Source of the DNA: a virus | Taxonomy: Duplodnaviria; Heunggongvirae; Uroviricota; Caudoviricetes | Length of the DNA stretch: 2,875 nt | Strand: one strand, 5' to 3' | IMG/VR virus record: IMGVR_UViG_2693429700_000017 | The notes under the pieces: generated by a model | The model's input: only the letters and a program-made list of their open reading frames with translations | What the model was told of the DNA's origin: nothing | Databases searched by the model: none | Part shown: positions 1 through 2,875 of the stretch, one piece after another | How the letters are laid out: each line of letters starts with the position of its first letter | How positions within the stretch are numbered: the stretch's first letter is position 1 | Made by a program: the position numbers and the translations under genes

Positions 1-97
1 CCTTTGCGGTAAATTTACATCGCACTCCTCTTGTGCCATAGTAATCGGGCACTGGCAAAATCCAGTGCCGGGATTGGCGTCCCGGATTACTAAAAGG
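1..97. repeat. 97-bp direct repeat, copy 1 (identical to 2779-2875); may extend beyond the window edge
   Basis: Base-by-base comparison of 1-97 with 2779-2875 shows 97/97 identity. Contains the palindrome GTAAATTTAC (9-18) and a hairpin GGCACTGG-CAAAAT-CCAGTGCC (48-69). Confidence 0.9.
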
Positions 98-104
98 CGC
101 ATTC

Positions 105-124
105 ACCGCGCAAGCGGTTTTTTT
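105..124 (+). terminator. Candidate intrinsic terminator immediately 3' of the repeat
   Basis: Stem ACCGC (105-109), GCAA tetraloop (110-113), stem GCGGT (114-118), followed by a run of 7 T (118-124). The stem is only 5 bp, so the call is moderate. Confidence 0.45.
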
Positions 125-281
125 ATGCGTATAGCACGGCCACATTCGTATTATGGTGGGCTGTGTGGGGGCACCGAAAGGTGCGCCGGGTCCTTTTAGC
201 CGGTTACGCCAACCCTGCACAGTTCACCACCAACCGATTGGCGTCGGTAGTGGTGATTAACCAGACTAAAAGGTAACCACT

Positions 282-977
282 ATGACAGCTACAAAAAGCA
301 CGTCCATTTTTTCTTTCGAATCCCAAGCCGATATACGGGTAATCGTCATTAATGGTGAGCCATGGTTTATCGCTTCAGATGTTTGTCGGGCTATAGGCAT
401 AGCAAACCATCGAGATGCTGTTCGAAAACTTGATGATGATGAGAAGGGCGTCGCTTCAACCGACACCCCTGGCGGTGAGCAAGAATCGATCATCATCTCC
501 GAGTCAGGCCTCTACACACTGATCCTCCGCTGCCGCGACGCAGTGACACCAGGCACTATCCCCTACCGCTTTCGTAAATGGGTTACAGGTGAGGTTCTTC
601 CTCAGATCCGCCGCACCGGAAGTTACATTAAAAACTCGCTCCCGCAGGAAGAACGCATAAAGATGGTTGCCGACCAGGTAGCCAACGCCACGGCGTCAGC
701 AGTGATAAAGGCGATGAAGATAGAGAACAAAACCTACAGCGCCCCGCTGAAGCCAGGCTACCGCAGCCTGATTCACTCGCCGTCTGGTGTTCTCGGCCTG
801 ACGGAGAACTCACTGCTGATGAATCTGCTGAACCAGTTACAGGAAGACGGGCACGACGTATCGGGCGCGGCGGCGGAGCTGACCACCATGTTCTGCTACA
901 TCGTCGGTGTGAGCAAATGCCTGCGTGATATCCAGACGCACGCGGAGTACATCAACGACAAAGCAGGGTTCTTCTGA
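282..977 (+). CDS. Bro-N domain protein (phage antirepressor-like, KilA-N/Bro-N superfamily) with an uncharacterised C-terminal half
   Basis: 231-aa ORF with AAGG Shine-Dalgarno (270-273) 8 nt upstream of ATG. The N-terminal ~110 aa carry the hallmark Bro-N pattern: F-x-F, VINGEPWF-x-A-x-DV, LDDDEKG, GG-x-Q, ISESGLY-x-LIL, FRKWVTGEVLPQIRRTGSY. The C-terminal ~115 aa have no motif I recognise. Assignment is from remembered family consensus, not a search. Confidence 0.8.
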   Translation: MTATKSTSIFSFESQADIRVIVINGEPWFIASDVCRAIGIANHRDAVRKLDDDEKGVASTDTPGGEQESIIISESGLYTLILRCRDAVTPGTIPYRFRKWVTGEVLPQIRRTGSYIKNSLPQEERIKMVADQVANATASAVIKAMKIENKTYSAPLKPGYRSLIHSPSGVLGLTENSLLMNLLNQLQEDGHDVSGAAAELTTMFCYIVGVSKCLRDIQTHAEYINDKAGFF

Positions 978-985
978 CGGGCGGT

Positions 986-1010
986 GGCACAGGGATGTGC
1001 CTTTAAATAA
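986..1010 (+). terminator. Weak candidate terminator or attenuator after ORF1
   Basis: Perfect hairpin GGCACA-GGGA-TGTGCC (986-1001) followed by TTTAAATAATT. The T tract is interrupted, so it is probably leaky at best. Confidence 0.3.
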
Positions 1011-1021
1011 TTCTGTACAGA

Positions 1022-1050
1022 TTGCAGACTGGGGCTGAATAGCGTACTAT
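1022..1050 (+). promoter_or_regulatory. Candidate sigma70 promoter for ORF2 (TTGCAG-17 nt-TACTAT)
   Basis: -35-like TTGCAG (1022-1027) and -10-like TACTAT (1045-1050) with a 17-nt spacer. Hexamer match only; no experimental support. Confidence 0.3.
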
Positions 1051-1101
1051 TACCTCACGGGTGATCCATAGCGATTAGGCACCGATACAGGAGGAGCCCA
1101 C

Positions 1102-1134
1102 ATGAGAAAATTTGACGAGTACGAAGGCGTTTAA
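1102..1134 (+). CDS. Possible 10-codon leader micro-ORF (MRKFDEYEGV) with a strong Shine-Dalgarno
   Basis: AGGAGG at 1089-1094, 7 nt upstream of ATG 1102; stop TAA at 1132-1134. It lies in the ORF2 5' leader, upstream of the palindrome at 1149-1167. Very short, so it could be fortuitous. Confidence 0.2.
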   Translation: MRKFDEYEGV

Positions 1135-1148
1135 CATTCGGATAGTTC

Positions 1149-1167
1149 ATTTACCCTAATGGTAAAT
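1149..1167. promoter_or_regulatory. Operator-like palindrome, site B: ATTTACC-CTAAT-GGTAAAT
   Basis: Perfect 7-bp inverted repeat with a 5-bp spacer, 39 bp upstream of the ORF2 start. Same half-site as the palindromes at 2682-2698 and 2775-2792. Confidence 0.5.
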
Positions 1168-1205
1168 CCCGCTTAAAGAAGCATCTATATATTATGAGGT
1201 GATGT

Positions 1206-1841
1206 ATGCCACAACAACTGCTGAATCCGGCAAAGGTAACTGAGGTTTTCGCTCATCTGAACGAAACTCCAGACAACCGCGCCCTGTATTCAGAGTTAGT
1301 GAACGGCAACGATGTCACATCTGATGTCAAAGGCGTTTCTCTGGCTCCTGGATACCGCGTTGTCCGTGTAGACGATCGTAAGAAAGGCGAGATTCCACAG
1401 GCGCACTTTGAACTGTCATTGATAAATGACCTCACCGAAGAGGTAGTGTATTACAATCGTGTCATTATCCAGCCTGACAGCTATCTTAACTGCCGTCCTG
1501 TCACGCAGATATTGGTATGGAGAACCCAGAAGCCTAAGCATCGTGCTGTGCTTCATGATTTCGCCGGCATCATCTTCATGAACTACCTCTTGGAACGGTA
1601 CGATATCATCGTGTCTGATCGCAACCAGACTCATGAAGGCATGTCGTTCTGGCAGGCTCGCATGTATGACGCACTGGAACTTGGCCTCCACCTCTATGGT
1701 TACGACATGATGACATGCGAGCTGATAGAGATGAATAACGAGGAAGAGCTTGAGAAAGGTGAAACCTGGTTGTGGGGTGATGCGGAAAACTTCCAAAACA
1801 GATTGGCCATAATTTCAAAGCATAAGCTGCCAATAAAATAG
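1206..1841 (+). CDS. Hypothetical protein, 211 aa, no recognisable domain
   Basis: Uninterrupted 636-nt ORF with GAGGT Shine-Dalgarno (1196-1200) 5 nt before ATG, and a canonical intrinsic terminator directly downstream. No transmembrane segment, no signal peptide and no catalytic motif I can name. Acidic C-terminal stretch (EMNNEEELEKGE). Confidence 0.75.
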   Translation: MPQQLLNPAKVTEVFAHLNETPDNRALYSELVNGNDVTSDVKGVSLAPGYRVVRVDDRKKGEIPQAHFELSLINDLTEEVVYYNRVIIQPDSYLNCRPVTQILVWRTQKPKHRAVLHDFAGIIFMNYLLERYDIIVSDRNQTHEGMSFWQARMYDALELGLHLYGYDMMTCELIEMNNEEELEKGETWLWGDAENFQNRLAIISKHKLPIK

Positions 1842-1849
1842 TTCTTTAA

Positions 1850-1870
1850 GCCCGCGACGCGGGCTTTTTT
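1850..1870 (+). terminator. Rho-independent terminator of ORF2
   Basis: GCCCGCG-A-CGCGGGC perfect GC-rich inverted repeat (1850-1864) followed by TTTTTT (1865-1870), 9 nt after the ORF2 stop codon. Confidence 0.75.
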
Positions 1871-1884
1871 GTGTCTGCGGATTC

Positions 1885-1896
1885 CCGCCCGGGCGG
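1885..1896. repeat. GC-only 12-bp palindrome CCGCCCGGGCGG between the two terminators
   Basis: Perfect palindrome read directly from the sequence; function unknown. Confidence 0.3.
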
Positions 1897-1910
1897 CGGT
1901 GGCATTCGTT

Positions 1911-1934
1911 AAAAACAAGGCCGCAAGAGCGGCC
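1911..1934 (-). terminator. Rho-independent terminator of ORF3 (minus strand)
   Basis: GGCCGC-AAGA-GCGGCC (1919-1934) read on the minus strand is followed by TTGTTTTT (complement of 1911-1918). The stem overlaps the ORF3 stop codon by 1 nt. Confidence 0.6.
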
Positions 1935-2662
1935 TAGCGTTTCGCTTTGTGCTCGTCCCAGCACGTTTTGCACCATGCCATTAAGCCATCCGCATTTTGA
2001 TTATTAGGGTAAAAGCTGGTTCGTTTTCTGCGGACATTACAAATTGGGCACCACTTCATATGACGTGTATTCTTTGGGCCATCGAGACACCTTGCACACC
2101 ACTTAGTCAATCCATCTGGATTTTTTGACGATTTCCTGAATTTTTCATATGGAAGGTTTATTCTGCATCGCAAACACTGCTTGCGGGCACTTGAAACTTC
2201 GTTAGCTGATTCTTCTTTTGACGGCGATACAGAAGGTATTCTTGCTGGCTCTGATACTGCCTGAGGTGCTTTTCTAGGTGACTGAGACGATACGTCATCA
2301 CCAGGGAATCTTCCATGATATGCCGGACGCGTTAACACCCCAGGTGGAAGCTCTGCTGTAAATGGCTTTGGCTGAATCAGTTGCCTCTCTTTTGCTAACT
2401 CCTGCTGTTTATAATATGTCTGGATTACCGCACTATCATAAGCAGAAGGTGCGGAAATATTAGGCGCATTACCTCCAGTTTTTTGAAACTGAGTAGAGGT
2501 GTGTTCTATCACCTGTGTACGATTAATCGTTATCTCCCCATCTTCGGTCTTTATCGTTTTGTTATGATTAACGACCGTACGATCAGAGATCTTAGTCTTG
2601 TTCTGGTTGATAACGTAAATAATCACCGCAACCACACCAACAACTATCCAGAAAACTTCCAT
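1934..2662 (-). CDS. Membrane-anchored protein with two tandem C4 zinc-ribbon-like repeats (hypothetical)
   Basis: 242-aa ORF with GAGGAA Shine-Dalgarno 5 nt upstream of the ATG (minus strand). N-terminal hydrophobic helix (EVFWIVVGVVAVIIYVI) followed by basic residues. Pro/Ser-rich low-complexity linker. The C-terminal ~72 aa hold two 30-residue repeats with identical spacing C-x2-C-x8-F-x7-DGL-x2-WC-x2-C. This gene is the most AT-rich in the window (hand counts about 35-47% GC in 60-nt samples). Confidence 0.75.
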   Translation of the reverse strand: MEVFWIVVGVVAVIIYVINQNKTKISDRTVVNHNKTIKTEDGEITINRTQVIEHTSTQFQKTGGNAPNISAPSAYDSAVIQTYYKQQELAKERQLIQPKPFTAELPPGVLTRPAYHGRFPGDDVSSQSPRKAPQAVSEPARIPSVSPSKEESANEVSSARKQCLRCRINLPYEKFRKSSKNPDGLTKWCARCLDGPKNTRHMKWCPICNVRRKRTSFYPNNQNADGLMAWCKTCWDEHKAKR

Positions 2663-2681
2663 TGCTTTTCCTCACAATAAC

Positions 2682-2698
2682 ATTACCTTAAAGGTAAT
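2682..2698. promoter_or_regulatory. Operator-like palindrome, site C: ATTACC-TTAAA-GGTAAT
   Basis: Perfect 6-bp inverted repeat with a 5-bp spacer, 20-36 bp upstream of the ORF3 start codon. Same half-site as sites A and B. Confidence 0.5.
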
Positions 2699-2719
2699 AT
2701 CTTGCTTTCAGGTGATCAA
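2691..2719 (-). promoter_or_regulatory. Candidate ORF3 promoter (minus strand TTGATC-17 nt-TACCTT) overlapping site C
   Basis: Minus-strand -35-like TTGATC (complement of 2714-2719) and a weak -10-like TACCTT (complement of 2691-2696). The -10 is poor and sits inside the palindrome; low confidence. Confidence 0.2.
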
Positions 2720-2750
2720 GCGTTAAACGCAATCAACCAAATACGGTTGA
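2720..2750. promoter_or_regulatory. Two further palindromes in the region upstream of ORF3: GCGTT-A-AACGC and TCAACC-N6-GGTTGA
   Basis: Perfect inverted repeats at 2720-2730 and 2733-2750, read directly. They could be regulator sites or RNA hairpins. Confidence 0.3.
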
Positions 2751-2774
2751 TTTTAATATTTCTTCGCGTTTATC

Positions 2775-2792
2775 ATTACCTTTGCGGTAAAT
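2775..2792. promoter_or_regulatory. Operator-like palindrome, site A: ATTACC-TTTGC-GGTAAAT, straddling the start of the terminal repeat
   Basis: Half-site ATTACC (2775-2780), 5-bp spacer, half-site GGTAAAT (2786-2792). The right half and spacer recur at window positions 3-14. Overlaps the palindrome GTAAATTTAC. Confidence 0.45.
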
Positions 2793-2875
2793 TTACATCG
2801 CACTCCTCTTGTGCCATAGTAATCGGGCACTGGCAAAATCCAGTGCCGGGATTGGCGTCCCGGATTACTAAAAGG
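2779..2875. repeat. 97-bp direct repeat, copy 2 (identical to 1-97)
   Basis: 97/97 identity with window positions 1-97; it ends exactly at the window edge, so the true repeat may be longer. Confidence 0.9.

Follow-up and report, generated by a model that had tools for sequence, protein, structure and literature searches.

Viral DNA that begins and ends with the same sequence raises the question of whether it is a small circle, one unit of a tandem array, a mobile cassette or a product of assembly. We address this question here for a 2,875-nucleotide (nt) stretch from a virus of the Caudoviricetes (IMG/VR record IMGVR_UViG_2693429700_000017), termed the window throughout, which carries a leader region specifying two small RNAs, an anti-repressor gene and two further genes. 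A search of the window for direct repeats returned a single family of 97 nt, whose two copies (1-97 and 2779-2875) are 100% identical and stand 2,778 bp apart from start to start, this distance being the period of the window. An exact match of this length in 2.9 kb is far beyond chance, and the perfect repeat and the period described in a first-pass annotation of this DNA are thus borne out. We think it likely, though by no means certain, that the window is a self-overlapping short-read contig, derived from a prophage with two anti-repressor modules by way of two repeats (R1 and R2) that these modules share. The 97-bp repeat is most likely one genomic site printed twice.

The first line of evidence comes from the identity of the contig. 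An exact look-up of the protein encoded by the third long open reading frame (ORF3) retrieved CYAS01000143.1 (assembly GCA_001283645.1; 2,875 bp), and the window is identical to the reverse complement of this entire contig. A sibling contig, CYFR01000147.1 (GCA_001285905.1; 2,850 bp), contains this 2,778-bp unit as well, differing by two single-nucleotide polymorphisms (SNPs); its terminal overlap is only 72 nt long, running from window position 2776 to 69, and so begins 3 nt before the 97-nt repeat does. Since sibling assemblies overlap by 97 and 72 nt, the length of the overlap is not biological. Moreover, two overlap lengths with nearly one cut point fit neither a biological repeat of defined length nor a free circle that was cut arbitrarily.

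The repeat has a function of its own: it consists of a promoter and the 5' half of the small RNA (sRNA) IsrK, including the a1/b1 target hairpins. A consensus scan identified a sigma-70-like promoter, the putative PisrK, on the plus strand at 14-42 (TTTACA-17-CATAGT, with an extended -10 TG) and its second copy at 2792-2820; its position would place the transcription start site near nt 49, where the isrK model begins. The IsrK-type sRNA occupies 49-124 of the plus strand and matches Rfam RF01394 at full length (model positions 1-77; 77.9 bits against a gathering threshold of 50). Repeat copy 1 (1-97, plus strand) therefore contains the promoter and the first 49 nt of IsrK, with the b1 hairpin and the a1 element, and in relatives it continues into leader sequence of the type termed leader 2 below. 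Repeat copy 2 (2779-2875, plus strand) is the end of the contig, where the isrK match is cut at its 3' end (2827-2875, 49.8 bits in the Rfam search). Among 5,426 complete E. coli genomes, the 97-nt segment is present in 456, with a median of one copy and a maximum of three.

Relatives of the window in resolved genomes show where this DNA resides. A nucleotide search found some match to the window in 986 of the 5,426 complete E. coli genomes, in chromosomal prophages, and the phages TL-2011b, vB_EcoP_ZX5 and phiV10, the last of which is classed in Uetakevirus, match parts of it at 95-99%. The best two plasmid records, of about 41 kb, each hold 35% of the window and none holds more. In annotated genomes the region lies between a tail-fibre gene and the DUF919 and internal virion protein genes of a prophage that adjoins yfgI; the integration site of ZX5 is the 3' end of guaA (PMC9782041). 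Three longer contigs encode an identical ORF3, namely L006 (9.6 kb), L008 (5.2 kb) and L007 (7.4 kb; from the same project as L006/L008), and the complete chromosome NZ_CP148401 (L003/L005) has a two-module layout. The order of the two-module form is gene X (85 amino acids, aa), leader 1, a BRO anti-repressor gene (228 aa), ORF2, ORF3 on the minus strand, leader 2, a second BRO gene (231 or 236 aa) and a YafO-family toxin gene.

Window 500-2875 is collinear with L006, L008 and L003 at 99.8-99.9% identity, and upstream of position 500 these three carry a different leader 1 and BRO N-terminus. In L006, L007 and L008, window position 2875 is followed directly by window 98-1062, with the 97 nt present once at the junction; L007, which starts at window position 879, runs through this junction into leader 2, and L003 continues into a divergent leader 2. 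Single-copy junctions of this kind are found, too, in two short contigs (L011 and L014) and three single-module genomes (L001, L002 and L004). Hence the two ends of the window correspond to a single physical site, leader 2: in L006, L007, L008, L011, L014, L001, L002 and L004, repeat copy 2 is the site of copy 1 and is followed by window 98 onward, as judged from blast pieces that overlap by exactly 97 nt in subject coordinates. The first-pass annotation had offered a circular or tandemly repeated element written with terminal redundancy as one of its two readings. The redundancy, the mapping of both ends to one site and the 2,778-bp tandem spacing within the parent prophage stand; a small circular replicon does not, the window being an entire short-read whole-genome shotgun contig whose DNA lies in chromosomal prophages at 99.8-99.9% identity.

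Two repeats account for the closure of the contig on itself. R1, the leader head, is exact over 95 nt in L006 and L008 (TTA plus window 1-92) and over 87 nt in L003, with a spacing of 2,766 bp. R2 (500-1062, plus strand), which comprises the 3' half of the BRO gene and downstream DNA, occurs twice in the two-module prophages according to self-blast of L006, L008 and L003; its copies are 563 nt long, 99.1% identical and spaced by exactly 2,778 bp, the period of the window. The R2 core (500-961, 462 nt) is identical in both copies, and SNPs at 962, 965, 985, 1032 and 1058 are diagnostic of one or the other, copy 2 having G962, T965, C985, T1032 and A1058. Window 1-499 is of the leader-2 type and 100% identical to L011 and L014, whereas window 962-1062 bears the copy-1 SNPs, which are those linked to ORF2. 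The window is therefore a closed walk that leads from R1 through the remainder of leader 2 and the 5' half of BRO231 into the R2 core, and thence through the copy-1 tail, ORF2 and ORF3 back to R1. Other short contigs terminate at points where breakage of a de Bruijn graph at R2 would be expected: the end of L014 at 598 and its start at 863 both lie 99 nt inside the 500-961 repeat, the start of L007 is at the position given above, and L012 and L013 both begin at 900.

These observations can be combined into the following scenario. The source would be a phiV10/TL-2011b-like (Uetakevirus-type) E. coli prophage beside yfgI with two tandem anti-repressor modules of the immI type. Each leader would comprise a promoter, IsrK (with b1 and a1), a terminator, the antisense RNA C4 (with b' and a'), a short ORF, and the elements b2 and a2 over the ribosome-binding site of the anti-repressor gene. 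In the assembly graph the path from leader 2 through the 5' half of BRO231, R2, ORF2 and ORF3 would close on leader 2, and the resulting loop of 2,778 bp would be written out with the leader head at both ends. The case shares its main features with other repeat-induced self-overlapping contigs: it is an entire contig, both its ends are one site in resolved genomes, the overlap differs in length between assemblies and a second, internal repeat closes the path. The first-pass annotation had itself raised an artefact of contig overlap as what would undo its proposal, and this is essentially where the evidence points.

Over the 2,778-bp unit the window differs from its closest relatives at only two positions, A707 and C1035. 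Both lie inside R2, the duplicated BRO segment, which makes up 20% of the unit; they may mean that the two R2 copies of the source strain have diverged, or that the consensus is faulty where a repeat was collapsed. The exact BRO protein of the window occurs only on the source contig, on account of the private SNP at nt 707 (M142I), and is uninformative as to the true neighbours of the gene.

Several points weigh against a self-overlapping contig. The two-module layout, which we infer for the source strain from sequence comparison, is taken from close relatives and not from that strain. The 97-nt overlap covers 1-97 and so does not coincide with the natural repeat of 95 nt, which spans -3 to 92; nor does any single k or k-1 rule fit both overlaps: 72 nt would fit k-1 for k=73, but 97 nt fits neither that rule nor the boundaries of the 95-nt repeat. 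Furthermore, an assembler that uses read pairs would not normally take the wrong branch across a repeat of 462 nt, and the source may truly have BRO231 linked to ORF2, an arrangement that does occur in L001, a single-module genome. As for the content of the repeat, the matches to the Rfam family c4-a1b1 (RF03163; 36-88 and 2814-2866) score 45.1 bits, just under the gathering threshold of 46.7.

The alternative that best survives these observations, though we regard it as unlikely, is a true tandem duplication, in which the source has leader and BRO231 twice (X - leader - BRO231 - ORF2 - ORF3 on the minus strand - leader - BRO231) or several 2,778-bp units generated by unequal crossing-over at R1/R2. 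The contig would then be correct but collapsed, and the repeat would be real and much longer than 97 bp. BRO231 is indeed followed directly by ORF2 in the complete genome L001, a 563-nt repeat of 99% identity is a good substrate for unequal recombination, and the crossing of R2 in two independent isolates (L009 and L010) is easier to understand if the link is real. However, such a duplication is seen in none of the 5,426 complete genomes; the only one of them in which ORF2 abuts ORF3 contiguously (L003) has two different BRO heads. Moreover, co-resident leaders differ in their a/b code in six of the six loci with more than one leader, which would make identical leaders atypical, and the longer contigs with an identical ORF3 (L006 and L008) have BRO228 upstream of ORF2. 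In the other two-copy genomes the second leader is convergent and drives an AntA anti-repressor.

We also considered an origin from a single-module prophage of the type of L001, a complete genome with the order X - ORF3 (minus strand) - leader - BRO231 - ORF2, which is a circular permutation of the window with 192 extra bp. Here the loop would be closed via a terminator segment of 26-62 nt. This origin was rejected, as both sibling contigs are cut at the leader and not at the terminator, and as the window lacks the extra 192 bp of L001.

A genuine small circular DNA, whether a plasmid-like element, a satellite or a circle excised by recombination, is very improbable. An entire contig with terminal redundancy usually indicates a circular assembly path, and RecA-mediated recombination between copies of R2 or R1 would be expected to release such a circle. 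Yet the cut points of the two assemblies lie no more than 3 nt apart, precisely where leader 1 and leader 2 part in their flanking sequence in resolved genomes, which points to a branch in the graph; an excision circle that does not replicate would be of too low abundance to yield a contig of its own; and the close matches all lie in chromosomal prophages, with no plasmid record holding more than the share of the window noted above. The first-pass annotation had seen no integrase, transposase or replication initiator in the unit, and our scans with Pfam, PHROGs, PADLOC and NCBIfam agree, as does a fold search with ORF2; the same four scans found no partition or mobilisation family among the three proteins of the window. 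Weaker still is a mobile cassette with att-like 97-bp direct repeats and a recombinase encoded elsewhere, the other reading of the first-pass annotation: modules are indeed shuffled between prophages, with homology blocks that end at the leader head, at a terminator hairpin and at the palindrome TTACC-N5-GGTAA, but the repeat, as a promoter and sRNA 5' half, serves a function of its own, the extent of exact identity varies (97, 72, 95 and 87 nt), the block edges resemble homologous-recombination joints of 26-563 nt rather than a fixed core site, the prophage integrase acts at guaA, and the single-copy sites inspected are complete leader-anti-repressor operons rather than empty attB sites.

Beyond the repeat, the leader continues with the remaining elements of an RNA-controlled anti-repressor operon. 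The 3' end of IsrK is an intrinsic terminator (105-124 in the terminator scan, with the stem at 105-118 and the T-run extending to 124), which is followed by a 35-aa ORF (153-260) and then by the Bro-N anti-repressor gene (282-977); this arrangement accords with the assignment to IsrK. A C4-type antisense RNA (149-234, plus strand) matches Rfam RF01695 (clan CL00128) with 77.7 bits against a gathering threshold of 45, over model positions 1-87. Its a' element (CCTTTTAG, 192-199) and b' element (ACGCCAA, 206-212) are exact reverse complements of two pairs of targets. The upstream pair lies in IsrK (b1, TTGGCGT, 74-80; a1, CTAAAAGG, 90-97) and is an exact copy of the downstream pair (238-273, plus strand; b2, TTGGCGT, 238-244; a2, CTAAAAGG, 266-273), both co-varying with a'/b'. 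The a2 element covers the Shine-Dalgarno region of the anti-repressor gene, 8 nt upstream of its ATG at 282. The 35-aa leader ORF, taken from the ORF list, is on the plus strand and overlaps C4; with its start at about +105 from the presumed transcription start, it may be regarded, by position only, as an analogue of Gifsy-1 orf45.

By analogy with immI of phage P1 and isrK of Gifsy-1, the regulatory logic would be as follows. Transcription from the promoter inside the repeat would yield a short IsrK that ends at the terminator, and read-through would yield a long RNA that is the source of C4. The a'/b' elements of C4 would pair with a2/b2 and thereby block translation of the leader ORF and the anti-repressor, while IsrK, with its a1/b1, could act as a competitor for C4 or change the structure of the long RNA, as in Gifsy-1. 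The anti-repressor, once made, would inactivate the prophage repressor, so that induction of the prophage would be RNA-gated.

The closest precedent is the isrK-orf45-anrP locus of Gifsy-1 in Salmonella, where the short, Hfq-associated IsrK acts in trans to switch on translation of the long isoform of this RNA (Hershko-Shalev et al. 2016, PMC4825925) and the first AUG of orf45 lies at +107 (PMC4825925). The two loci share a full-length isrK, an intrinsic terminator, a short ORF at about +105 and an anti-repressor gene next to it, and the downstream processed or read-through region corresponds to STnc1160/C4. In contrast to the lambdoid Gifsy, however, the host of the module here is a short-tailed phiV10-like phage, the anti-repressor is of the Bro-N type, there is extra cargo (ORF2, or YafO in relatives) and a prophage has up to three leaders; activation by IsrK in trans is here a prediction. 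The immI operon of phages P1 and P7 is given as c4 - icd - ant in the account of Citron & Schuster (1990, as cited in PMC8198154). It shares with the window a C4 placed between upstream a1/b1 and downstream a2/b2 that overlap the ribosome-binding site of the anti-repressor, but we identified no icd homologue in the window, whose Bro-N anti-repressor belongs to an unrelated sequence family and whose prophage is integrated rather than a plasmid.

The phages phiV10, vB_EcoP_ZX5 and TL-2011b resemble the window at 95-99% nucleotide identity over the leader and BRO gene (window 1-1062), TL-2011b doing so over ORF3 as well, and likewise carry this region with the tail-fibre gene on one side and the internal virion and DUF919 genes on the other; they differ in having one module in this orientation. 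An anti-repressor module controlled by IsrK/C4 is already known, as is this phage group, which has already been sequenced. The new points here are modest, namely the multiple leaders with distinct, co-varying codes and the finding that the RNAs are unannotated in the records inspected: neither the genome records nor the TL-2011b record, nor the feature labels of the other phage matches, annotate IsrK or C4.

With respect to proteins, three long ORFs lie between the repeat copies: 282-977 (plus strand, 231 aa), 1206-1841 (plus, 211 aa) and 1934-2662 (minus, 242 aa). The first-pass statement that three genes fill the interval holds for these but is incomplete, as it leaves out isrK (49-124), C4 and the 35-aa ORF. 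The first ORF encodes a Bro-N anti-repressor (Pfam Bro-N, 2.2e-21; PHROG 130 'anti-repressor Ant', 3.3e-63); window 1-1062 is 98.9% identical to phage ZX5 across the ZX5 anti-repressor, overexpression of which promotes the lytic cycle (PMC9782041). The anti-repressors of the family (variants of 228, 230, 231 and 236 aa) are nearly identical in their C-terminal two-thirds and have their N-terminal Bro-N domains swapped (window 500-977 versus 282-500), which suggests domain shuffling that alters target specificity; AntA-type proteins occupy the anti-repressor slot, too. ORF2 is a widespread cargo gene of anti-repressor operons, and its product is predicted to adopt a GNAT-like fold. The product of ORF3 (PHROG 6762, 2.8e-147) has an N-terminal membrane anchor, a low-complexity linker and two C-terminal CxxC...WCxxC zinc-ribbon repeats (tandem C-x2-C...DGL-x2-WC-x2-C). 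The zinc-ribbon part shows weak matches to endonuclease VII and Lar-like families, and the match of ORF3 to Pfam Stc1 is below the cut-off; PADLOC, NCBIfam and PDB sequence searches returned nothing for ORF2 or ORF3. ORF3 is divergent from the isrK promoter, across two operator-like palindromes.

The first of these palindromes, TTACCTTTGCGGTAA (2776-2790), lies across the start of the repeat and directly adjoins the -35 hexamer of the isrK promoter. A motif scan located further copies of TTACC-N5-GGTAA at 2683-2697, 1151-1165 and 1050-1064. Counting sites of 15 bp with at most one mismatch, there are four in the window and nine in 24 kb of L003 (among them 6700, 9131, 9511, 10551, 10652, 12184, 12277 and 13344), against 0.8 expected from shuffles. 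The palindrome recurs at promoters and at module edges; the exact leader repeat of L003, L006 and L008 begins at its first base, and R2 ends at another palindrome. It looks like a repressor operator that doubles as a recombination joint. A scan of the window for LexA boxes gave no convincing site.

ORF2 and ORF3 converge on back-to-back intrinsic terminators (1848-1935, both strands), which the terminator scan placed at 1848-1873 on the plus strand for ORF2 and at 1935-1918 on the minus strand for ORF3. Within this segment, 1910-1935 is the 26-bp overlap of two homology blocks, 1650-1935 and 1910-2150 (491 genomes; contiguous in one), and is, from the pattern of these blocks, a probable recombination joint. 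The terminator segment is also found at module ends in L001-L004, and in single-module prophages the 26-bp hairpin stands at both ends of the accessory region. The two-module form accordingly looks like a fusion, at this hairpin, of two common single-module forms.

The leaders themselves vary in an ordered manner. Up to three isrK+C4 leaders occur per prophage, of which two are tandem and the third, in convergent orientation, drives an AntA-type anti-repressor (L006, L026 and L027); by Rfam, L003 has two isrK+C4 pairs and L006 three, at 1461-1647 (plus), 4270-4455 (minus) and 7040-7221 (minus). Among 32 leaders from the fetched loci (L003, L006-L008, L010-L014 and L016-L027) we found at least six classes of a/b code, with the a element reading CTAAAAGG, CTAAGTGG, CTACA(A/G)AGG or CTAGTAGG and the b element reading TTGGCGT or TTGGTCT. 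In 27 of these leaders, which are all those where the pattern recovered a'/b', a'/b' change in step with both target copies, and co-resident leaders have different codes in all six loci with two or three leaders. This difference in code accounts for the fact that leader 1 and leader 2 cease to be identical after nt 92, a position within a1. Whole-RNA duplex energies of C4 with cognate and non-cognate targets, which ignore intramolecular structure, gave no discrimination, and the short a/b elements were compared directly instead. One leader, that of L013, combines b1 TTGGCGT with b2 TTGGTCT and is possibly a recombinant with a mismatched code. In the heteroimmunity of P1 and P7, compensating changes in a'/b' and their targets distinguish the leaders, and the covariation of the leader codes seen here resembles that case.

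More generally, these features raise the possibility, which we offer tentatively and with more doubt than conviction, that phiV10-like prophages have arrays of two or three anti-repressor modules locked by IsrK/C4, with distinct RNA codes, interchangeable N-terminal domains and toxin-like cargo (a GNAT-fold protein or YafO), which would be shuffled by homologous recombination at the leader head, the BRO 3' half, the terminator hairpin and TTACC-N5-GGTAA. In such a combinatorial system, the period of 2,778 bp would represent a single step. On the practical side, screens that call small circular elements by their terminal repeats will pick up self-overlapping contigs of this kind, which calls for caution. 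If the proposed organization is true, arrays of modules would let one prophage respond to, or induce, several repressors independently.

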